Assembly (NCBI GenBank): GCA_035292445.1
Contig: DATDQB010000020.1
Coordinates: forward strand, 91,484 to 155,483
Reading direction: 5' to 3'
Source of the DNA: Candidatus Omnitrophota bacterium
Lineage (GTDB): Bacteria; Omnitrophota; Gorgyraeia; Zapsychrales; Zapsychraceae
DNA length: 64,000 nucleotides
Each line of letters begins with the position of its first letter. Position 1 is the stretch's first letter. Both the position numbers and the translations under genes were made by a program. This document shows, piece by piece, positions 31,318-49,400 of the stretch. Under the pieces are notes generated by a model, which saw only the letters and a list, made by a program, of their open reading frames with translations, was not told the DNA's origin and did not search any database.

Positions 31318-32166
31318 TTATTTCTTTACAAGAGAATAAAACTTCGGTTTTTTGCGGGAACTAAGAAGGGCGAGATTGTCCTCCGGAAATTCTTTCCATT
31401 CAAACCGACCTTCCCCTGGGACAATCGAGGAAATTATCGATAAACGGTTTTCTTTATCGTACGTGTAGTAAAGCGAATTGCCTTTACGAAAAGCCCATAC
31501 CTCTTTGCCGTCCGCCAAAAAGAAATTCAGCGACTGAGGCTTATCTTTCGTATGTGCCAACAACTCTTCAACCGCATTCATTAATCCTTTGCGGACATTA
31601 CTGTCGGCCTCATCGATCTTTTTTACCAAATAAATAAAGTACAATTCCGAATCAATCCATGAATCAGGCGGGTTGCTGACGCATATTTGAGGAGAATTTT
31701 GCTTTAAGTATTCCTCTCCTATGAGGCTCATCAACAATTGCTTGTCAATGCCGCCGTTATGGCCGAACAGCCAATTTCTGCCGTTATGAAAAAGCTGGAA
31801 AGGATAAGGATCAGGGGTATCGCCGTTACACCCGGAAGAAGCCTGGCGCAGATGCCCGATCACGATATTGGCCTGCGTCTTAGCGGCATAATCGACCGCT
31901 TGGTCGAATTTTTCATCTTGTGAAGAGGATTTTTCGGAACGCGCCACCAGAGCCGTCGTCCCCTTATAAAACGAAATGGACCAGCCATCGGCAAATTCAT
32001 TGCCCAGATGTTTCAAGGATTGCGGTAACTGCAATAATTGCTCTTTGACGATGTCGGAAGAAATCGATTTGGTATTGGCTACCCAAAAGCGGCTGGCTTC
32101 CGCGGAGGAAATGGAAACACACATCCCAACAACGATCAACAGGATAACATAGGTGTGCCCTTTCAT
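31318..32166 (-). CDS. secreted class-II glutamine-amidotransferase-like (Ntn-hydrolase) protein
   Basis: Signal peptide. A GHLRQASSGC block resembles the GATase-2/YafJ core. 282 aa. Confidence 0.45.
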   Translation of the reverse strand: MKGHTYVILLIVVGMCVSISSAEASRFWVANTKSISSDIVKEQLLQLPQSLKHLGNEFADGWSISFYKGTTALVARSEKSSSQDEKFDQAVDYAAKTQANIVIGHLRQASSGCNGDTPDPYPFQLFHNGRNWLFGHNGGIDKQLLMSLIGEEYLKQNSPQICVSNPPDSWIDSELYFIYLVKKIDEADSNVRKGLMNAVEELLAHTKDKPQSLNFFLADGKEVWAFRKGNSLYYTYDKENRLSIISSIVPGEGRFEWKEFPEDNLALLSSRKKPKFYSLVKK

Positions 32167-32261: not shown

Positions 32262-32894
32262 TTATTGAGACATGAGCGCTTGTTGAACGGCTTGCTGGTA
32301 TTGTTGCTGGATAGCCTGCTGTATCTGGGCCTGAATGGCCTGCTGGATTTGGGCCTGAATCGCTTGTTGTTGCTGCATGATGAGTTGCTGGGCCACCTGC
32401 TGCTGCACGGCCCGTTGGACGACGGCCCGCTGAATCGCCTGTTGCTGCGCCATGACAACCGCCCGTTGGACAATTTGTTGCTGAATAGCCCGCTGAACGG
32501 TCTGTTGAATGGCGTGCTGGACAACCGTCTGGGCGATACGCTGCTGGATGGTTTGTTGCATGGCCTGCTGGATCATCGCCTGGGCCACTTGTTGTTGGCG
32601 CTGGGCCAGCGTCTGCTGGGCTGCTTGAACATAAGCCTGTTGGATGGCCTGTTGAATAACAGCTTGCTGAAGCCCTTGCATAAGCGTCTGCTCAATAGCG
32701 GCCTCAACAATGGCCTGGTTCACGTTCAGCTGCTGTTGAATGACCGTTTGTTGCACCGCCATCGCGACCATTTGACGATAAGTGTTAATAACAATCTGCT
32801 GGATAATCGGATCAACGGTTTCCTGACCGCGGCCAATGCCGGTGGGAAGCAATAAAAAAACCAACAAAACCATGGGGATCTTATTTTTCATCAT
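32262..32894 (-). CDS. secreted Gln/Ala/Ile/Val-rich repeat protein (probable coiled-coil)
   Basis: Signal peptide MMKNKIPMVLLVFLLLPTG, then about 180 aa of AIQQ/QQAxQ repeats. GGAGAAAG RBS. The antisense Leu-rich ORF at 32265-32855 is a mirror artefact of the repetitive DNA. Confidence 0.55.
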   Translation of the reverse strand: MMKNKIPMVLLVFLLLPTGIGRGQETVDPIIQQIVINTYRQMVAMAVQQTVIQQQLNVNQAIVEAAIEQTLMQGLQQAVIQQAIQQAYVQAAQQTLAQRQQQVAQAMIQQAMQQTIQQRIAQTVVQHAIQQTVQRAIQQQIVQRAVVMAQQQAIQRAVVQRAVQQQVAQQLIMQQQQAIQAQIQQAIQAQIQQAIQQQYQQAVQQALMSQ

Positions 32895-32911
32895 CTTTCT
32901 CCAACGTTCGT

Positions 32912-33604
32912 TTATTCCGGAATAGTTTCGCCTTTTAATATCGGCGGTAATCTTAGGGCGTCTATCCGCAAGCCGCCGTCATGTTCAATTTTAATGGTAT
33001 AAAGGATGCCGGGGACAAACATGGTTCCCGGCGCTTCGATTTGCGCGTTTTTGATGCCGACTTTTTTGGCCTTCTGCGGGTTCAGCGCGTATTCCCAAAA
33101 TTGCTGCCACAACCTTTTCTCCAAAGGATAATCCCCGTCAGCCAATTTGTAACCATCAGGTATCGTGTGCGCCTGGGTGATGTCATATTCCTGGGTATTG
33201 GTGCCGTCCAGCATAAAAACTTTCCAGAATAAATAGGCGCTTTTGCCCTTTAAGGCATCGCCCCGGCGGATATGGATATCGTCAAAACGCACGATGAGCG
33301 TCTGAAACTGAATAATATTGCCAGAGAACGTAAAATATTTCGCCTCCATCGGCTTACCTTTACTATCATACTCCAAAAATTTGATCGTGGTATACGTCTT
33401 TTGGTTTTTTTCGTCATAACGGACGTTGGTGACCAAGACCTCGGCGGCCCTGGAATCCGCTTCCAGGCGGCTGACGATCTGTTTAAGGACGTAATTTTCG
33501 TGTTTATATCTTGAGAACAGATCGTACCCGAAATAACCCGCGACCGCCAGGACACCTAAAAGAATGATAAGTTTAAAAAACCTAAGATCGGACACTTTCT
33601 TCAT
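32912..33604 (-). CDS. membrane-anchored hypothetical protein
   Basis: N-terminal TM segment, 230 aa, no recognisable motif. Confidence 0.45.
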   Translation of the reverse strand: MKKVSDLRFFKLIILLGVLAVAGYFGYDLFSRYKHENYVLKQIVSRLEADSRAAEVLVTNVRYDEKNQKTYTTIKFLEYDSKGKPMEAKYFTFSGNIIQFQTLIVRFDDIHIRRGDALKGKSAYLFWKVFMLDGTNTQEYDITQAHTIPDGYKLADGDYPLEKRLWQQFWEYALNPQKAKKVGIKNAQIEAPGTMFVPGILYTIKIEHDGGLRIDALRLPPILKGETIPE

Positions 33605-33622: not shown

Positions 33623-34540
33623 TTAAATAGCCCTTAAATACGCCTCTTCCTCTTTTGGTTTCTTCTCATGCCCCTGCTGCTGCAGCGTCACGGCCTTCGC
33701 CAATACCTGGGCGGCCATCTCGTCCTTGCCGGCGGCTTTTAAATTCAAACTTAAAAAATAATAAGCCTCGGCGTAATCAGGATCTATCTCAATGGCCTGC
33801 TGCAGAAAATAGATCGACTTTTGATAATCTTCAAGATGGTAGGACGCCACCCCCGCGTAATAATAAAACATCTCCTGGGAATTCAACCCTATGGAAACGG
33901 CTTCATTGGCCAGCGCGATCGCTTTGCCGTAATCCTTAAGGGCAAGGTAACTTAAGATAAGCAACCGATGACATTCGCTGTAACCGGCCTTTAGCCGGGG
34001 CAGGATGATCTCCCCTAAATTCACCACCCCCGTCAACGCCCGTTGGTATTCGATCGATTTTGTGATGATCAACATCGCCATTTCAGGGTTCTTCTTCCGG
34101 GCCATCTCAAAATACTTGACCGCCTTTTCATGGTCGCCTTTTTTATAATAAATGACGCCGAGATTATAGGGAAACCAAAAAAAGTACGGGTTCAATACAG
34201 CGGCTTTCTCCAAAGAAGCGATCGCCTTTTTTTCCTTACCCAAATAATAATAACTGATGCCCAAAAACCCGTGGGCATCGGCCAGCTGCGGCAGAAACTG
34301 CACGACCTTTTCATAATAACGCTCATATTGTTCAAACATTTCCTTATCGGCCGCTGTATTGGGTTCCCGTTCACCGAGCCTGATAAGATGCGTAAACCCC
34401 CCCGGCATATTGTGATTAAGCGTACGGATGATCACCCTCTCGCGGATCACTTTGTAATCGACAATAAGAAGCGAGGCGCCGAAAAGGGCGAGATATAAAA
34501 CGGCGCCACGCGTTAGGATGAACTTAACCGCTGATTTCAT
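33623..34540 (-). CDS. membrane-anchored TPR-repeat protein
   Basis: N-terminal TM segment and several TPR-like repeats (AEAYYFLSLNL, YNLGVIYYKKGDHEKAVKYF). Overlaps the upstream polytopic membrane protein gene by 17 nt. Confidence 0.7.
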   Translation of the reverse strand: MKSAVKFILTRGAVLYLALFGASLLIVDYKVIRERVIIRTLNHNMPGGFTHLIRLGEREPNTAADKEMFEQYERYYEKVVQFLPQLADAHGFLGISYYYLGKEKKAIASLEKAAVLNPYFFWFPYNLGVIYYKKGDHEKAVKYFEMARKKNPEMAMLIITKSIEYQRALTGVVNLGEIILPRLKAGYSECHRLLILSYLALKDYGKAIALANEAVSIGLNSQEMFYYYAGVASYHLEDYQKSIYFLQQAIEIDPDYAEAYYFLSLNLKAAGKDEMAAQVLAKAVTLQQQGHEKKPKEEEAYLRAI

Positions 34541-36677
34541 AAGACGGATTCTCTTTTATCGCTGCGATGATCAATAACAAAAAGGTCAATGAAAATAGCC
34601 CCACATAAAAATATTCTATTCCGTAATCGATGGGAGAACGAAAACGCAACACGAGCGTGTTCTTCCCCTCCGGCAGCCAAACCCCTTTAAAAGAAATATT
34701 CGTTCGCCGAACCGGTGTTCTTTGGCCGTTAACAAAGGCTTGCCAATCAGAATGATAATTGTCGTTATAGACCAAAAATTTAGGCTTGTTATAACCGGTT
34801 TCTATCTTGATACCGTTGAGATCGAAATCCGAAACCTTGAACTGTCCGCTTTCGCCCTCGATGGGTTGCGGCTCAAGGGAAGCGTTTGCGCTTCCAGAAA
34901 AATGATCAACACCCTCTGCGGATTCGATATAAGCGATGTTCTCCCGATCCCTCCATGAACGCTCAAACTCTTTTAAGGCAACCCGATCATCCTCAACGGC
35001 CTTTGTTTTATCATAAACAATAAATTTATAACGGGCGTATTCCGAGAACATATCATCATCCACCCCATTCAAAAGAACATATAGCCATCGCGTGGAGTAA
35101 TAAAGCTGGCGCCCTTTTATGGAAAACTTATTTTCGCCTTCTTCGCTTTTGTGGTACGCCCGCTGATATTCAAATGTAAGTGATGCTGGCATCTCTTTTT
35201 CCAAAGCAACCGCGTGAAAGGCATTGCGGCTGACAAACAAGTACGTCTGCAGCGGCTGGATACCGACAAGGATAATAAGGGATATCAGCAGATTTCTCGG
35301 TGAAAAAAACTTTTCCAAACCGGCGTTGGCCGTCCGTCTTACATAGAGGCTGCACCAAACAAAGCTGAGAAAGACCGTCGCATAGGAAGTTATGCTCACG
35401 CCTTTCTGTAAAAAAAGAAAAACGGCAAAAACGGCGTGGATGAGAAAAACATACAAACCGGCAAGAACCGCATCTTTTCTACGATGGGCCTCAAACGCCA
35501 GAAGCTGACGGAATTGCTCCGACAACAACAAAATAAAGACAGGCAAAACAAGAACCCAGAAAAAATAATAAGATTGCCTGATGTATTTAAAATAAAAAAC
35601 GTGTTCCATGAGAAAATCGTAAAGAGGCGTCGTTGTCGTCAATCCGATCAAAAGGATGATAAAGGCCCACACCGCCATAAAAACCATTTTCTTGTTTAAC
35701 GTTGTTCCCAAGCCAAGCAACAACACAAGATAGGCAAAAACAGGCACATAGGCCACCCCCAGCTCCATCTCATCATGGCCGGAAAAAAGTTTATCGAAAT
35801 AAACCTGCGAGGTTATATCCCCTCCCGCTATATTACGCTCGCTGACGGTGAAAATATTCCCTCCCTGCGCCTCCTGCTGGCGGGCCGGCAGGGCCAATTC
35901 GCCGGATGCGGCGTCTTTATAAAGCCTGTAACCGGGGATCAATGATAATAGAATAAAAAGACAGCACAAAAAGGCAACGAACCTATTCTTTCCGGCAAAT
36001 TGGCCATAACGTGAAAAAATCGTCCGCAACGATTTCATATAAAAGAAAACGAACAGAATTAGAAACGTCACAAAGATTGTGATGAAGTAAAACGGGATAT
36101 ACGTCGTCAGTATCACCATCGATGAGAAGGTCAATCCCCAGGCGTGCACTTGCTTGGGCTCTTGGGTGAAGGCAACGAGAAAATAAAAGAACCAGAAATA
36201 AGGCACAAAGATAAGCTGGATATAACTGAAGAAAAGCATGGTGCTTAGGGAAGAAAAAAGCAGCAGAAGAAACCCTAAAAAGGCGGCCCGTTCGTCCTTC
36301 ACGAGCCGCTTGGCCAAAAGATAGAAACCGACCATGCCCAAAAAATAATAAACGGCCAAAAACCAAAGATAAGCCCCATGCCAACTCAGTCCGAGCTTAT
36401 TCAAAAGAAAGATAACGAAATAAAGCGGGTTGTAATTGCCGATGCGCCGCAGGAAAAACTCCCAGGGAATACCGTAATACCAGTCTGGGTCCCATAAAGG
36501 ATAAACACCGTGGAATAAATTGACAAGATAGAACTTGATGGACAAAGCGTACTGGACGGCATCCAGCACCAACGAAAGTTCTCCGGAAAGAAAGCCTCGG
36601 AACATAAAGACCCAAAGAAGAAAAGACAGCAGGAATGGCCAGGGGATTTGTTTTAAGGCAGCGGGTTTCTTGAACAT
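34524..36677 (-). CDS. large polytopic membrane protein with a C-terminal extracytoplasmic domain (YfhO / GT-C-like putative glycosyltransferase)
   Basis: 717 aa. More than 12 hydrophobic segments in the first 480 aa, then a hydrophilic domain and one terminal TM. Confidence 0.45.
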   Translation of the reverse strand: MFKKPAALKQIPWPFLLSFLLWVFMFRGFLSGELSLVLDAVQYALSIKFYLVNLFHGVYPLWDPDWYYGIPWEFFLRRIGNYNPLYFVIFLLNKLGLSWHGAYLWFLAVYYFLGMVGFYLLAKRLVKDERAAFLGFLLLLFSSLSTMLFFSYIQLIFVPYFWFFYFLVAFTQEPKQVHAWGLTFSSMVILTTYIPFYFITIFVTFLILFVFFYMKSLRTIFSRYGQFAGKNRFVAFLCCLFILLSLIPGYRLYKDAASGELALPARQQEAQGGNIFTVSERNIAGGDITSQVYFDKLFSGHDEMELGVAYVPVFAYLVLLLGLGTTLNKKMVFMAVWAFIILLIGLTTTTPLYDFLMEHVFYFKYIRQSYYFFWVLVLPVFILLLSEQFRQLLAFEAHRRKDAVLAGLYVFLIHAVFAVFLFLQKGVSITSYATVFLSFVWCSLYVRRTANAGLEKFFSPRNLLISLIILVGIQPLQTYLFVSRNAFHAVALEKEMPASLTFEYQRAYHKSEEGENKFSIKGRQLYYSTRWLYVLLNGVDDDMFSEYARYKFIVYDKTKAVEDDRVALKEFERSWRDRENIAYIESAEGVDHFSGSANASLEPQPIEGESGQFKVSDFDLNGIKIETGYNKPKFLVYNDNYHSDWQAFVNGQRTPVRRTNISFKGVWLPEGKNTLVLRFRSPIDYGIEYFYVGLFSLTFLLLIIAAIKENPSYEISG

Positions 36678-36967: not shown

Positions 36968-38599
36968 TTAGGCAGACTGAAAGATTTGATAAAGGGCAGC
37001 GCGCTGCTGCTTGGTGCGCTCATCTTCAAGATAGTCATCGAAGGTAGTGCCCATCCGGTCGATATAACCACTGGGCGTGATCTCGATGATGCGGTTCGCC
37101 ACCGTTTGGATGAATTGATGGTCGTGGGAAGAAAAAAAGACCGTCCCGCGGTAGCGTTCGAGCCCCTCATTCAGGGCGGTGATCGATTCCAGGTCCAAAT
37201 GATTGGTCGGCTCATCCAGGATAAGGACGTTGGCGCCGACCAGCATCATCCGTGAAAGCATCAAACGTACCCGCTCCCCGCCGGAGAGAACCTTGGCCTT
37301 CTTCAGCGCCTCTTCTCCGGAAAATAACATGCGCCCCAAAAATCCGCGGATGAACGTTTCGTCCTTTTCACTCGAATATTGCCTCAACCAATCGATCAAG
37401 TTCAGGTCACCATCAAAATATTTACTATTCTCTTTGGGAAAATAAGCGCGGTTGGTCGATGCCCCCCATTTAAAAGCGCCCTTATCGGCCTGCGCCTCCC
37501 CAGTAAGGATCTGGAACAAGGCCGTTTTGGCAACGTCAAAGCGCCCGACAAAAGCGATCTTGTCCCCCTTATTGACCTCGATGTTCAAACCTTTAAAAAC
37601 AACTCCGCCTTCGAGCGATTTACTTAAGAATTCGATGTGTAACAAATCGTTGCCAGCGTCTTTCTCGAACTGAAAACCCACGTAAGGGTATTTTCTCGAG
37701 GAAGGACGGATGTCTTCCAGCGTCAATTTCTCCAGTGTTTTTTTGCGGGATGTCGCTTGGCGGGACTTGGAGGCGTTCGCGCTGAAACGGGCGATAAAAT
37801 CCTGCAATTCCTTTCTTTTCTCTTCGGTCCTTTTATTTTGATCCTGCCTCTGGCGTAACGCCAACCGGCTGGATTCCAGCCAGAACGAATAATTCCCGGG
37901 ATAGAGCTGGATCCGCCCGAAATCAATATCGGCAATATGGGTGCAAACCTTATCCAAAAAATGGCGGTCATGGGAGACAACAATGGCGATATTTTCAAAA
38001 TTGTACAAAAATTCTTCCAACCACATGCCTGTTTCAATATCCAATTGGTTGGTAGGTTCATCCAACAGCAAGATATCCGGATTTCCGAAAAGGGCCTGCG
38101 CCAATAAGACCCTCACCTTCTGCCCCGCTTCCAATTGCTTCATTTTTTGGGTATGCAGATCTTCCGGTATACCCAGATTATTCAATAATTTGGCCGCGTC
38201 CGTCTGCGCATTCCAGCCATCGAGTTCGGTGAATTCAGCCTCCAGCTCCGATGCCCGCAACCCGTCCGCTTCGCTGAATTGGGGATTAGCGTAAATGGCA
38301 TCCTTTTCTTTCATCACCTCATAAAGCCTTTTATGGCCCATGATGACGGTTTCCAGGATCTCATAATCGTCAAAAGCGAATTGATCCTGCTTAAGGACCG
38401 AGATGCGCTTGCCCGGGGCGACCACCACTTCACCGGTCGTGGTTTCCAACTCTCCCGACAAAAGCTTCAGAAAGGTGGATTTGCCGCTGCCGTTGGCGCC
38501 GATAATGCCGTAACAGTTCCCCGGTGAGAACGTGATATTGACGCCATCAAAAAGCTTGCGCTTGCCAAATTGTAGGGATACGCCGTTGGCCGAGATCAT
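36968..38599 (-). CDS. ABC-F family ATPase (tandem ABC domains; translation-associated EttA/Uup/YheS-like)
   Basis: Two Walker A sites (GANGSGKST; GRFDVAKT degenerate) and two signature motifs (LSGGERVRL), with no TM domain. 543 aa. Confidence 0.85.
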   Translation of the reverse strand: MISANGVSLQFGKRKLFDGVNITFSPGNCYGIIGANGSGKSTFLKLLSGELETTTGEVVVAPGKRISVLKQDQFAFDDYEILETVIMGHKRLYEVMKEKDAIYANPQFSEADGLRASELEAEFTELDGWNAQTDAAKLLNNLGIPEDLHTQKMKQLEAGQKVRVLLAQALFGNPDILLLDEPTNQLDIETGMWLEEFLYNFENIAIVVSHDRHFLDKVCTHIADIDFGRIQLYPGNYSFWLESSRLALRQRQDQNKRTEEKRKELQDFIARFSANASKSRQATSRKKTLEKLTLEDIRPSSRKYPYVGFQFEKDAGNDLLHIEFLSKSLEGGVVFKGLNIEVNKGDKIAFVGRFDVAKTALFQILTGEAQADKGAFKWGASTNRAYFPKENSKYFDGDLNLIDWLRQYSSEKDETFIRGFLGRMLFSGEEALKKAKVLSGGERVRLMLSRMMLVGANVLILDEPTNHLDLESITALNEGLERYRGTVFFSSHDHQFIQTVANRIIEITPSGYIDRMGTTFDDYLEDERTKQQRAALYQIFQSA

Positions 38600-38605
38600 T
38601 TCGTC

Positions 38606-39193
38606 TTACCTTGCTCTTTTCTTATTAAAAGCGATGAATGCCAGCAGGCCCTGCCCTAATAAGAGAAGGCTGTGCGGTTCAGGAATAACGGGAGTTCGAG
38701 GAAGGTTGGTATTAACGGCCCATCCCCCCAAATTGCTGAAGGTCTGGTTCGTGCCAGAACCGATAGGAGTGAACCATACATCGGTCGGTTGGTTAAAAGG
38801 ATTCGACCCCCATTTAAAATTCCAGCTGCCGCCATCATTGGGATTGCCATCCTCGTCATAATACCCCCATATAAGATTTACTGTCGGGGATGACCCCATG
38901 ATGGATGCATGAAGGTCGAACAGCGTAGGATCGGCCGGTGCCGCCAGTTTCAGCTGCTCGATCTCCACAAAAGTCGCAATATGAAAATCACTGCCCAATA
39001 AAAAGGTATGGATGTCCGTATAGCTCATCCCTAAAAAGTTGTCGACATCCATCCAAGTAAAACCCGTAGCCTGATCCTTAAAAAACCCCTGGCCGTTGGC
39101 ATCCGAAAGATCGACAATGAATGCCTGGGCTTTGGAGCCGCCACACAATAACAACAGGATAATAATCCCGCCTATCACATATTTTCTAAACAT
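38606..39193 (-). CDS. PEP-CTERM-sorted secreted protein
   Basis: Signal peptide and a C-terminal VIPEPHSLLLLGQGLLAFIAFNKKRAR (PEP motif, TM segment, basic tail). Confidence 0.7.
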   Translation of the reverse strand: MFRKYVIGGIIILLLLCGGSKAQAFIVDLSDANGQGFFKDQATGFTWMDVDNFLGMSYTDIHTFLLGSDFHIATFVEIEQLKLAAPADPTLFDLHASIMGSSPTVNLIWGYYDEDGNPNDGGSWNFKWGSNPFNQPTDVWFTPIGSGTNQTFSNLGGWAVNTNLPRTPVIPEPHSLLLLGQGLLAFIAFNKKRAR

Positions 39194-48309: not shown

Positions 48310-49275
48310 TTATCCTCCGATCTGATACATCGCTTGCTCTATGTGATCAATGCGTGTAAAAGGCTTCATCCGTAGAACAGTCCTAAGAATTGCTGGATAT
48401 TGCTCCTTTGATATCCCTCGTAAATTAACCCCGGCTTCAGACATAATACACGCTCGTAATTTTCCAGTAGCCGTCAAACGCAAGCGGGAGCAAAAAGAAC
48501 AAAAAGATTGCGATTCGGAAGCAATGAAACCAAGCTTTGCACCTGATGGGGTTGTAAAATTAAAAGACGTGGAATCACGATTGACTGACTGTGGTAGCAA
48601 AATTTCGGATTCCTCAATTTTTTTTATAATCTCCCTGGCCGATACAAAATAAAGACTGTGATATTGAATAGAACATCCTATCTTCATTAATTCCAGAAAT
48701 CGAACCTCAATATCATGATCAGCAGAAAATTTGACAAAATCCAAAATTTCATCGTCATTGATCCCGCGCATCACAACCACGTTTACTTTTACCCGGAATC
48801 CCTCCGTCCTTGCCTGAAGAACGGCCTTGTAAACCTTATCAAAATATCTTGTCTTTGTAATCTTGTGAAATCGCTCTGCCCGAAGGCTATCCAGACTTAT
48901 ATTAATATGCTGACAACGTGTTTGTTTCAGAAAATCAAATTTCCCATCCAATAAGAAACCATTCGTCGTCAGGCCTAACTTTCCTAACGAAAGATTGGAA
49001 AGGCCTTCGATAATGGCCTCAAAATCACTTCTTAAGGTTGGCTCTCCACCCGAGACTCTGATTTCATCAATTCCAAAATCAACCAAAGCGGAGCATATTT
49101 CCAGCAACTCACCAGAGGAAAGAAGTGCCGAGGAGGGTAAAAATTCAGGCAGCAACGGCATGCAGTAAAAACAGCGGAAATTACACGCATCTGTTAACTG
49201 AACACGTAATTTATGGATCTGCCGACCATGAGCATCGACCAAAATCGACTTTGAGTCCATCTTCTTCCTTTCCAA
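48310..49275 (-). CDS. moaA: GTP 3',8-cyclase MoaA (radical SAM)
   Basis: LTDACNFRCFYCMP CxxxCxxC motif and a C-terminal second-cluster Cys. 321 aa. Confidence 0.9.
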   Translation of the reverse strand: MERKKMDSKSILVDAHGRQIHKLRVQLTDACNFRCFYCMPLLPEFLPSSALLSSGELLEICSALVDFGIDEIRVSGGEPTLRSDFEAIIEGLSNLSLGKLGLTTNGFLLDGKFDFLKQTRCQHINISLDSLRAERFHKITKTRYFDKVYKAVLQARTEGFRVKVNVVVMRGINDDEILDFVKFSADHDIEVRFLELMKIGCSIQYHSLYFVSAREIIKKIEESEILLPQSVNRDSTSFNFTTPSGAKLGFIASESQSFCSFCSRLRLTATGKLRACIMSEAGVNLRGISKEQYPAILRTVLRMKPFTRIDHIEQAMYQIGG

Positions 49276-49400
49276 ACACGGGAAGCTATATCGTTTCCAA
49301 CACAGCCGTCAGCTCCTGCTAACAGTCAGCTAACAGGAGCATCGTCCTTAAACCATGGCCGAAGCTTTAGGTTTCAAGGATTAGGGAATTTGATGATTAT

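Follow-up and report, generated by a model that had tools for sequence, protein, structure and literature searches.

The window analysed here, a stretch of 64,000 nucleotides from a Candidatus Omnitrophota bacterium, contains an open reading frame (ORF) of extreme glutamine content. We sought to determine whether this ORF is a genuine gene, which strand carries it and what kind of protein it encodes. The putative mature part of its product has 186 residues, among them 70 Gln (37.6%), 30 Ala (16%), 22 Ile and 21 Val (Ile and Val together, 23%). Charged residues are limited to 11 Asp, Glu or Arg and no Lys (about 6–7%). About half of the residues of the protein are hydrophobic, and its C-terminal half is 43% Gln. 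The genes in the window average 3.6% Gln, and against this average the content of the Q-rich protein has a binomial P of ~2e-51. The ORF ranked first for Gln among the 1,260 ORFs of 100 aa or more from 89 Omnitrophota loci, for which the 99th percentile is 10.9%. The features of the locus are listed in Table 1.

Table 1. Positions of the features at the Q-rich locus, numbered from the first nucleotide of the window
Feature	Position	Strand	Basis or remark
Secreted class-II glutamine-amidotransferase-like gene (GATase_4, Ntn-hydrolase)	31318..32166	-	Pfam GATase_4, E = 6e-18
Hyper-Gln exported-protein CDS, 210 aa + stop	32262..32894	-	ATG-to-stop ORF fills the interval exactly (ORF listing); composition, codon usage, dN/dS
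Mirror Leu-rich ORF, 196 aa, 37% Leu	32265..32855	+	Codon-aligned antisense frame; interpreted as a by-product
C-terminal Q-rich tail, residues 123-209	32268..32528	-	AF2 single 87-residue helix, pLDDT 73-88
Tandem DNA repeat, 24-nt unit x 2.2 copies	32307..32360		Tandem Repeats Finder, 86% matches
N-terminal helical region, residues 25-122, four predicted helices	32529..32822	-	AF2, family alignment
Putative signal peptide, ~residues 1-24	32823..32894	-	Hydrophobicity scan; cleavage site inferred
Ribosome-binding site GGAG	32899..32902	-	4 nt to first ATG; read from sequence
Partner gene, 230-aa membrane-anchored protein	32912..33604	-	Stop 17 nt upstream of the Q-rich start

To judge from its pattern of substitution, the minus-strand ORF is a genuine and strongly conserved gene. 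The comparison with an orthologue in another locus (L091; 86% identical) comprised 104 substitutions, of which 71 fell at third, 13 at second and 20 at first codon positions. The dN/dS of the sense frame was 0.104 over the whole gene and 0.070 over the mature part, where dS was 0.87. The neighboring genes are under similar constraint (0.060 for the upstream partner gene and 0.120 for the downstream GATase_4-like gene). Twenty-two CAA and CAG codons had been swapped for one another, while only two Gln residues had been replaced. The Gln codons of the gene (CAG:CAA, 40:31) agree with genome usage (54.5:45.5), and its synonymous-codon score was −0.93, compared with −1.06 ± 0.04 for reference genes. 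By this evidence, the neutral hyper-Gln state is kept by purifying selection and is not that of a drifting low-complexity sequence. The position of the ribosome-binding site, together with a family alignment that begins at Met1 or Met2, supports Met1 as the start over Met8. Some gene callers take Met8 as the start.

Next, we searched for relatives of the protein. Scans against Pfam, NCBIfam, PHROGs and PADLOC returned nothing past the curated thresholds, an exact look-up of the called products in a collection of 15 billion proteins found neither of them, and in the literature no paper linking Omnitrophota with glutamine-rich proteins was found. A first search of 5.8 billion proteins gave one weak match, P0001 (E = 2.7e-7; pairwise E = 3e-12). 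The profile search that followed this match yielded 6 relatives, and an exhaustive profile search of 1.84 billion proteins yielded 68 related clusters, 63 of them at E ≤ 1e-10. The clusters share one architecture, in which a signal peptide precedes a helical N-terminal region (~100 residues) and a helical tail rich in Gln ends the protein; this tail carries a conserved QQY motif whose Tyr aligns to Y199 of the window protein. The initial annotation knew of no comparable bacterial family. This holds for described families, none of which matched, but not for the 68 clusters, which by profile similarity are a small, undescribed and Omnitrophota-restricted family, herein referred to as the Q-tail family.

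Membership of the window protein in the Q-tail family is supported by significant similarity, a signal-type N-terminus, adjacency to the partner gene, a period of ~4.1 residues and the Q-rich QQY tail. What it lacks is the ordinary charged N-terminal domain with a near-invariant loop Pro: at this column, conserved in at least 90% of members, the window protein has Gln (residue 60). Its Gln content over the whole length is 34%, compared with 7–21% in the family, and its charged residues amount to 7%, compared with 15–26%. At positions where the window protein has Gln, the family has Gln in 31%, basic residues in 19%, acidic residues in 17% and other polar residues in 17%, while at its hydrophobic positions 67% of the family's alignment cells are hydrophobic too. 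The alignment thus reads as a derived and atypical member, the compositional extreme of the family, in whose lineage almost all charged surface positions were replaced by Gln and the hydrophobic pattern was kept. Besides the L091 protein, an orthologue 63% identical to the window protein was found in locus L090. Two further loci (L020 and L059) also contain Q-rich ORFs, and these encode BatC-like TPR proteins that carry poly-Q linkers and are unrelated.

Similarity to characterized proteins was sought for the family as a whole. Scans of 60 members against Pfam and NCBIfam gave nothing above the curated threshold, only sub-threshold matches to DUF445 (PF04286). These matches, in 10 of the 60 members, were weak and roughly co-linear, covered the central helical part and reached E = 4e-4 at best. 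The window protein scored 9.9 bits and the other members inspected 13–19 bits, all below the gathering score of 33.8, and hhalign gave a probability of 0.2% for the family profile against E. coli YjiN. DUF445 proteins such as YjiN are membrane proteins of larger size, likewise of uncharacterized function, and we rejected this assignment. Likewise rejected was a relationship to the CpxP/Spy (LTXXQ) chaperones: even at E ≤ 1, LTXXQ appeared neither in the Pfam matches of the window protein nor in the list of the 25 families that the 60 members matched most often. Sequence searches of the PDB with 7-member and 60-member profiles found designed helical repeat proteins as the best matches, which were not convincing (E = 0.003–0.008), and a PDB fold search with the model of the Q-rich protein found nothing significant.

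The gene immediately upstream encodes a membrane-anchored protein that is far more widespread. It has more than 2,177 homologues at 58–82% identity, nearly all of them in Omnitrophota. A hydrophobicity scan placed a transmembrane segment at residues 9–26 with Lys/Arg ahead of it, and the AF2 model (pLDDT 83) has a long helix and a beta domain. The protein is thus predicted to be anchored in the inner membrane, with its N-terminus inside and its domain in the periplasm. The PDB fold search gave no function-suggesting match for this model either. The Q-tail gene lies next to the partner gene, on the same strand, in 11 of the 12 contexts that could be evaluated. The spacing varies between a 20-nt overlap and a gap of 48 nt, and the remaining flanking genes are not the same from locus to locus. 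One Q-tail member, P0133 (locus L100), lacks an adjacent partner gene. The Q-rich and partner genes are probably translationally coupled. Among 80 partner loci at species level, only ~2 have a Q-tail gene as well; therefore, the partner works without the Q-tail protein. Companion-bearing partners do not form a clade in a neighbor-joining tree, which is poorly resolved and lends no support to a single origin. No conserved operon surrounds the partner, its commonest neighbor family occurring in 15 of ~84 loci. A YfhO-like gene was seen near the partner in 3 loci only.

The Q-rich protein itself is predicted to be exported by the Sec pathway to the periplasm and to be all-alpha. Its N-terminus, MMKNKIPMVLLVFLLLPTGIGRG, resembles a signal peptide, with two Lys, a hydrophobic core of 12 residues (mean Kyte-Doolittle of the best 10-residue window, 3.1) and GIGRG followed by QE. 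A hydrophobicity scan found an N-terminus of similar type in 63 of 70 Q-tail family members. Neither a lipobox nor a transmembrane segment was detected in the Q-rich protein. The AF2 model, built on a 7-sequence alignment, is all-helical (pLDDT 78, pTM 0.58). Helices at residues 29–53, 60–74, 78–100 and 105–120 (pLDDT 87–93) make up the N-terminal region, which matches the family's domain of ordinary composition in the family alignment. The secreted, Gln-rich and helix-prone protein of the initial annotation is thereby supported. The beta-branched residues Ile and Val are less than ideal in a helix, which counts against the helical reading.

The spectra of hydrophobic residues and of Gln both peak at a period of 4.1 residues, where the power was 4.47 and the 99th percentile of shuffled sequences was 2.55. 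Pairs of hydrophobic residues occur more often than expected at i+4 and i+5, and less often at i+3 (z = −2.5) and i+7 (z = −3.3). The two halves of the window protein peak at 4.06 and 4.12 residues (4.12 in the tail), and the family medians are 4.04 and 4.10. A non-heptad period of ~4.1 residues occurs in 61 of 69 N-terminal and 48 of 69 C-terminal halves across the family. Around a straight alpha-helix, a hydrophobic stripe of this period takes a steep course, with about one turn per 30 residues. Therefore, the single 87-residue helix of the tail may be wrong or may need unusual packing.

We infer that the Q-rich protein is a periplasmic helical accessory subunit, with a structural or adaptor role, of the conserved partner, a reading to which we give roughly even chances. 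Here, gene order is what suggests a physical interaction between the two proteins. The Q-rich protein would dock on the membrane-anchored partner, and its tail would add a long helical rod, which, should the 87-residue helix prove real, would measure ~13 nm. The surface of the helix would present i/i+4 ladders of Gln beside a spiraling Ala/Ile/Val stripe, and ladders and stripe might mediate self-association or binding to the partner. Lpp and domain II of TolA offer a likeness, as exported or membrane-tethered long helices of biased composition. Both are spacers or connectors of the envelope and are heptad-based or rich in charged residues; the Q-rich protein differs from them in having neither sequence nor fold similarity, nor a lipobox or transmembrane segment.

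A second reading adds one step to this accessory role and is compatible with it. The secreted class-II-amidotransferase-like protein encoded downstream might have the hyper-Gln protein as its dedicated macromolecular substrate, whose Gln would be deamidated to Glu, as a charge switch or for ammonia release, or transferred as gamma-glutamyl to an envelope amine, forming a crosslink. The downstream protein also matches PDB 1TE5 (E = 5e-7). All three hyper-Q genes (in the window, L091 and L090; 32–38% Gln) are directly followed by such a gene (76% identity in L091 and 48% in L090), which is absent from the other ~95 loci, ordinary family members included. The neighbor has a predicted signal peptide, and its predicted mature N-terminus, Ser25 (SRFW), falls, by alignment offsets, at the place of the N-terminal Cys nucleophile of its family. 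Both the window and L091 proteins have the HxRxAS..G and HNG motifs. However, the three hyper-Q loci are one clade and thus represent a single evolutionary event, and the nucleophile would be Ser instead of Cys. Furthermore, the L090 protein has Glu for the conserved Arg and HTG for HNG, which suggests a degenerate or non-catalytic protein, and the neighbor evolves faster than the Q-rich protein, which retains 63% identity to L090. To our knowledge, no class-II amidotransferase acts on protein-bound Gln. On balance, we consider the substrate reading unlikely.

In its fullest form, this reading would make the hyper-Gln protein and the Ntn-type amidotransferase-like protein a periplasmic protein-glutamine modification pair, which we regard as improbable. 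Cleavage of the signal peptide would expose the N-terminal nucleophile of the enzyme. Docked on the conserved membrane partner, the rod would have its Gln ladders deamidated or transamidated by this enzyme, and would thus turn from a neutral into an acidic or crosslinked envelope element. If true, class-II amidotransferase-like enzymes would gain a new class of substrate, and an uncharged helix of Gln ladders, non-canonical in its 4.1-residue period, would have a use in nature.

Gln-rich sequences can form coiled coils, and the initial annotation had described quasi-heptad spacing and a long periplasmic or extracellular coiled coil. A helix-compatible composition (Gln, Ala, Met, Leu) and the 87-residue helix predicted by AF2 agree with such a fiber, as does the regular hydrophobic/polar alternation that coiled coils, with periods of 3.5, 3.67 or 3.75, share with the long helices predicted here. 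However, at periods of 3.5, 3.6, 3.67 and 3.75 residues the spectral power of the Q-rich protein was only 0.03–0.19 (0.19 at 3.5), and the 3.5-residue periodicity of a canonical heptad, with joint enrichment at i+3, i+4 and i+7, was not found. The non-heptad period is moreover shared across the family, and the AF2 model had no fold match to coiled-coil structures in the PDB fold search. We know of no coiled coil with a period of 4.1 residues, which lies outside the known range. The quasi-heptad spacing was thus not borne out, and a long canonical heptad-type coiled coil is very unlikely.

Single helices were considered as well. Uncharged Gln-rich sequences mixed with hydrophobic residues fold as alpha-helices (Escobedo et al. 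2019, PMC6497633; Escobedo et al. 2022, PMC9674830), and natural uncharged Gln-based single helices have been proposed (Escobedo et al. 2022, PMC9674830). The published rule places Gln at i+4 from a bulky acceptor [LFYWIM], concatenated with a 3-residue step (PMC9674830). The Q-rich protein contains 8 pairs of [LFYWIM](i)-Gln(i+4), compared with 14.4 expected from shuffling (z = −2.4), and the concatenated motif has 0 matches in it; we therefore rejected a single helix of this type. The hydrophobic half of its residues argues for burial rather than for a monomeric helix. An ER/K-type single alpha-helix was also rejected, with Asp, Glu, Lys and Arg at ~6% and no Lys in the mature protein.

The initial annotation had alternatively proposed a Q/N-rich, amyloid-prone fiber. 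We considered this as a functional amyloid or prion-like subunit comparable to curli or Fap. Curli (CsgA) and Fap resemble the Q-rich protein as exported, Gln-rich and imperfectly repetitive bacterial proteins; a composition high in Gln, Ile and Val can form steric zippers, and the Q-rich protein is nearly uncharged and predicted to be exported. In contrast, its spectra have no 2-residue periodicity, and with 1 Gly, 3 Asn and 1 Ser the mature protein holds no strand-turn-strand repeats. Curlin and Fap were not among its Pfam matches, and no csgG/E/F-like or fapF-like export genes were found nearby, the neighbors being TPR, GATase_4 and ABC-2 genes. The relatives are 15–26% charged with an ordinary helical composition, purifying selection is position-specific, AF2 predicts a helix, and the periodicity is of the helical type. 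We consider an amyloid of this kind highly improbable.

The Leu-rich ORF on the opposite strand does exist, as had been observed, but its cause is codon complementarity and not repetitive DNA. Its Leu codons arise because Gln CAG and CAA read as Leu CTG and TTG in antisense, and it stays open because TTA, CTA and TCA codons are nearly absent from the sense frame. The DNA of the gene is in fact weakly repetitive: the tandem array in Table 1, which encodes IQQAIQAQ octads at residues 179–196, is the sole true one, and the other repeats are 60–80% identical. Repeat-number variation between strains, a suggested check, was not seen: independent assemblies of one population, 4 of them full and 2 partial, all carry the gene at 100% identity. 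Only L090, which is more distant, differs in length; its protein aligns with 22 extra residues of similar octads ~30 residues N-terminal to the window array.

The ambiguity of strand is real, since one public annotation (JGI 3300002124) placed its gene call, a product of 190 aa, on the opposite strand, and the mirror frame is open across 196 codons. Nevertheless, its dN/dS against L091 was 0.58, and its synonymous-codon score, −1.25, lay ~4.5 SD under the reference genes. As many as 71 of its 73 Leu codons are CTG or TTG, compared with 43.5% genome-wide (P ~2e-23), a usage impossible for this genome. In family members of ordinary composition, 5–9 stops break the mirror frame while the sense frame stays open, and the ribosome-binding site, the putative signal peptide and operon polarity all point to the minus strand. 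By these measures the mirror ORF is a by-product and not a gene, and the chance that the plus strand carries the real gene, or that the region is non-coding simple-sequence DNA, is practically nil given the third-position bias, the constraint on the sense frame and the single short array. The evolutionary evidence thereby goes against both refuting conditions named in the initial annotation, as the region codes for protein and does so on the minus strand.

The wrong-strand annotation and the exact look-up that missed the called product in a collection of 15 billion proteins indicate that such genes are easily missed or mis-annotated. No coiled-coil or single-helix rule described so far accounts for the 4.1-residue period, which makes the Q-rich protein useful for testing how ladders of Gln, together with small hydrophobic stripes, may build stable helices or assemblies. 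As a putative accessory, it gives a first handle on its partner, a phylum-wide, highly conserved and uncharacterized envelope protein of the Omnitrophota.

The glutamine-rich gene is an ATG-to-TAA frame of 210 codons; its coordinates in the initial annotation stand, and its strand is minus. The encoded protein (calculated mass 21 kDa, pI 10.2) begins with a sequence of the signal-peptide type, MMKNKIPMVLLVFLLLPTGIGRG. The mature part of 186 residues contains 70 Gln (37.6%), 30 Ala, 22 Ile and 21 Val, with 11 charged residues in all (7 Arg, 3 Glu, 1 Asp) and Lys absent. Gln makes up 3.6% of the window's reference genes (binomial P ~2e-51), and no ORF is richer in Gln in a set of 1,260 (each at least 100 aa long) drawn from 89 Omnitrophota loci (median 2.9%, 99th percentile 10.9%). 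The Gln-rich composition first claimed for it is therefore confirmed. No second Gln-rich ORF was found within the window.

The Leu-rich mirror ORF reported on the opposite strand is present. It is open because CAG and CAA (Gln) are read there as CTG and TTG (Leu), and also because the sense frame has one TTA codon and no CTA or TCA codons. Codon usage was compared with that of 38 genes of the window. In the mirror frame, 71 of 73 Leu codons are CTG or TTG, versus 43.5% in the reference genes (P ~2e-23), while CAG:CAA in the sense frame (40:31) matches the genome ratio of 54.5:45.5. The mean log probability of a codon given its amino acid was -0.93 in the sense frame, -1.25 in the mirror frame and -1.06 +/- 0.04 in the reference genes. 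A GGAG ribosome-binding site precedes the first ATG, with 4 nt between them, and the start lies 17 nt from the stop codon of the upstream gene, inside a long run of minus-strand genes.

A full-length orthologue (locus L091, 210 aa, 86% identity) came from a scan of metagenomes. In a codon alignment of the two genes, the 104 nucleotide differences fall at third, second and first sense codon positions in 71, 13 and 20 cases; 58 of the changed codons are synonymous, 30 are nonsynonymous, and 22 are CAA/CAG swaps. For the sense frame, dN/dS comes to 0.104 over the whole gene and to 0.070 in the mature part (dS 0.87), versus 0.58 for the mirror frame; neighbouring genes gave 0.060 and 0.120 over the same divergence. 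Family members whose composition is ordinary have 5–9 stops in the mirror frame and an uninterrupted sense frame. From these three independent tests (codon usage, signals and evolution), we conclude that the gene is protein-coding on the minus strand and that strong purifying selection acts on the Gln-rich sequence itself. Neither of the two outcomes that the initial annotation named as refuting holds. The strand ambiguity is nevertheless real, since the JGI 3300002124 annotation picked the mirror ORF (190 aa, in L083). The remaining public annotations start the gene at Met8 (203 aa); both the ribosome-binding site and the alignment of the family point to Met1. Neither called product has an exact match in a collection of 15 billion proteins, in which the products of neighbouring genes are present.

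The DNA is hardly repetitive, contrary to the initial annotation: besides one 24-nt tandem array, all repeats in the gene share only 60–80% identity. The product of the gene upstream has 100% identity to a protein of a Candidatus Omnitrophota metagenome-assembled genome. Six independent assemblies of that population, four with the full Q-rich gene and two with part of it, carry 100% identical copies, so there is no repeat-number variation between these strains.

Coordinates of the features in the window and in related Omnitrophota loci
Feature	Locus	Coordinates	Strand	Description
Q-rich gene	window	32262-32894	minus	210 codons
Mirror ORF	window	32265-32855	plus	196 aa, 37% Leu, codon-aligned antisense frame
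Mirror ORF as called by JGI	L083	3363-3935	minus	same DNA as window mirror ORF
Tandem array	window	32307-32360		24-nt unit, 2.2 copies, encodes IQQAIQAQ
Partner gene	window	32912-33604	minus	230 aa, immediately upstream of Q-rich gene
Split partner	L089	3-368; 374-649		two ORFs
GATase_4-like gene	window	31318-32166	minus	Ntn-hydrolase
GATase_4-like gene	L090	722-1546
GATase_4-like gene	L091	1086-1569
YfhO-like gene	window	34524-36677	minus	717 aa
YfhO-like gene	L057	409-2532
YfhO-like gene	L098	4803-6977
ABC-F ATPase, then Zn_ribbon_21 gene	window	36968-38599	minus	Zn_ribbon_21 gene on opposite strand
ABC-F ATPase, then Zn_ribbon_21 gene	L095	1829-3680		Zn_ribbon_21 gene on opposite strand
Weak PEP-CTERM protein	window	38606-39193	minus	195 aa
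Mo/W cofactor riboswitch	window	49251-49398	minus	RF01055
BatC-like TPR protein	L020	11116-11979
BatC-like TPR protein	L059	7624-8463

The Q-rich protein matched no family in Pfam, NCBIfam, PHROGs or PADLOC. Searching 5.8 billion proteins by word index produced a single weak match (P0001, 29% identity, E = 2.7e-7), a three-sequence profile yielded six relatives, and 68 clusters, 63 with E <= 1e-10, emerged when 1.84 billion representatives were searched exhaustively with a HMMER profile. The protein belongs to a family not previously described, the Q-tail family, of which it is an atypical, derived member. All clusters are 145–275 aa long, and 63 of 70 members have a signal peptide. Members share a helical N-terminal region of ordinary charged composition and a C-terminal tail rich in Gln, at the end of which stands a conserved QQY-type motif. 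A G-[VI]-[LY]-x-[ST] motif directly after the signal peptide occurs in 34 of 69 members (alignment A5) and is missing from the window protein.

The window protein is the compositional extreme of the family, with 34% Gln overall versus 7–21%, and 7% charged residues versus 15–26%. At the columns of its Gln residues, 31% of family residues are Gln, 19% basic, 17% acidic, 17% other polar and 15% hydrophobic; at its hydrophobic columns, 67% of the family's cells are hydrophobic too. The window lineage thus retained the hydrophobic pattern while its polar, charged surface became Gln. Even the family's single nearly invariant Pro is Gln in the window protein. Two BatC-like secreted TPR proteins (L020 and L059), encoded ~4.4 kb downstream of the partner gene after a MoxR-like ATPase, carry long poly-Q/acidic linkers with homopolymeric Gln runs of 10–12; they are unrelated to the Q-tail family and show that exported Gln-rich segments recur in the phylum.

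The Q-tail gene adjoins the partner gene on the same strand in 11 of 12 evaluable members, with spacings from a 20-nt overlap to 48 nt. It lies downstream of the partner in the window, L091, L001, L058, L088, L089, L094, L095 and L098, and upstream in L056 and L093; L100 is the sole exception. Flanking genes beyond the pair vary between loci. The partner has more than 2,177 homologues at 58–82% identity, nearly all in Omnitrophota, and 62 invariant columns in an alignment of 39 sequences, with no known domain in Pfam or NCBIfam. A single N-terminal TM segment is preceded by Lys/Arg. Its AF2 model is confident (pLDDT 83, pTM 0.72), with a long helix that leads into a beta domain, and the fold has no significant match in PDB or BFVD. 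A Q-tail gene is present at only 2 of 80 species-level partner loci, whose neighbourhoods are otherwise variable, and partners with Q-tail companions do not cluster on a poorly resolved neighbour-joining tree. The Q-tail protein therefore accompanies a conserved core protein only now and then, as an accessory.

Several observations concern the surroundings of these genes. The partner beside the Q-tail gene P0125 (L089) is split in two, by either a frameshift/pseudogene or an assembly error. A gene for a polytopic membrane protein weakly similar to the YfhO family, whose members are extracytoplasmic GT-C-type glycosyltransferases, is found close to the partner at three independent loci, of which two also have a Q-tail gene; with so few cases, no interpretation of this association is warranted. 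The ABC-F/Zn_ribbon_21 pair, whose small Zn_ribbon_21 gene was read in L082 (DNA identical to that of the window), is separated from the partner by a few genes on its upstream side, both in the window genome and in the distant L095, which also has a Q-tail gene; the arrangement represents residual synteny. A weak C-terminal PEP-CTERM sorting signal, sub-threshold in Pfam (E = 0.002), is a hint that the window genome has an exosortase system. The riboswitch (54 bits, E = 3e-10) was the sole Rfam match over the window, and no tRNA genes were found.

A hyper-Gln subclade is formed by the window protein (mature part 38% Gln), L091 (38%) and L090 (32%; 63% identical). The L090 protein is longer by 22 residues of QAVKQQVxE octads, so the tails of different lineages differ in length in steps of an octad. 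Behind each of the three genes lies an orthologue of one secreted class-II-glutamine-amidotransferase-like gene (Pfam GATase_4, E = 6e-18; closest solved relative 1TE5; 76% and 48% identity to the window copy in L091 and L090), which is absent from every other locus examined. The Q-rich protein could accordingly be a substrate of this neighbour, a reading compatible with the structural role that we favour, though an unlikely one. Predicted signal-peptide cleavage (AEA/SRFW in the window, ASA/SRFW and AQA/SLFW in the others) would place a Ser at the mature N-terminus, which, judged by alignment offsets, is about where the family has its Cys nucleophile. Two conserved motifs are degenerate in the L090 copy (a conserved Arg and HNG are changed), which may be a pseudo-enzyme.

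The quasi-heptad spacing initially described did not hold up, and with it a canonical coiled-coil fibre becomes improbable. Hydrophobic and Gln positions give a Fourier peak at 4.1 residues (power 4.5; shuffle 99th percentile 2.55), versus a power of 0.03–0.19 at 3.5–3.75 residues. Hydrophobic pairs are in excess at i+4 (z = 3.6) and i+5 (z = 2.8) and in deficit at i+2 (z = -5.4), i+3 (-2.5) and i+7 (-3.3); Gln–Gln pairs are in excess at i+4 (z = 3.6). Like residues thus face each other at i and i+4. A hydrophobic period of ~4.1 residues characterizes both halves of the family's proteins, with peaks at 4.0–4.2 in 48 of 69 C-terminal and 61 of 69 N-terminal halves. The AF2 model (7-sequence alignment; pLDDT 78, pTM 0.58) is all-helical, as a coiled coil would be, with helices at 29–53, 60–74, 78–100 and 105–120 and then a single helix at 123–209; Foldseek found no meaningful match in PDB (best E = 0.63, TM < 0.31). 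On a standard alpha-helix, stripes of period 4.1 would precess ~12 degrees per residue, far steeper than in any coiled coil known to us. The defining features of heptad coiled coils are lacking, as are those of ER/K single helices, DUF445 and LTXXQ chaperones. A Q/N amyloid, which the Gln content might suggest, is very improbable; the features that define curli/Fap amyloids are likewise lacking. That the region is non-coding simple-sequence DNA, or the mirror ORF the real gene, can be dismissed almost entirely on the codon usage, the third-position differences and the dN/dS of the two frames.

Among known systems, polyQ and Gln-based single alpha-helices (PMC6497633, PMC9674830) come nearest in concept. 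The Q-rich protein departs from their rule in that i+4 pairs from a bulky residue to Gln are depleted, and the published motif (PMC9674830) has no match in it. In general type, it resembles exported, compositionally biased helical envelope proteins. The explanation to which we give roughly even credence is a periplasmic helical subunit or adaptor that works with the membrane-anchored partner. The protein would be exported by Sec to the periplasm and would give the partner a rod-like helical element, with Gln ladders and an Ala/Ile/Val stripe mediating association; in the window lineage, its surface has been neutralised to Gln and is maintained so by selection. The data establish which strand is coding, the selection on it, the family to which it belongs, its composition and its linkage to the partner gene, whereas its export, its fold, any physical contact with the partner and its structural role are inferred. 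The partner, a conserved protein found phylum-wide, merits separate study. The Q-rich gene thus encodes an unusual but real protein of an undescribed family, with an informative gene partnership.
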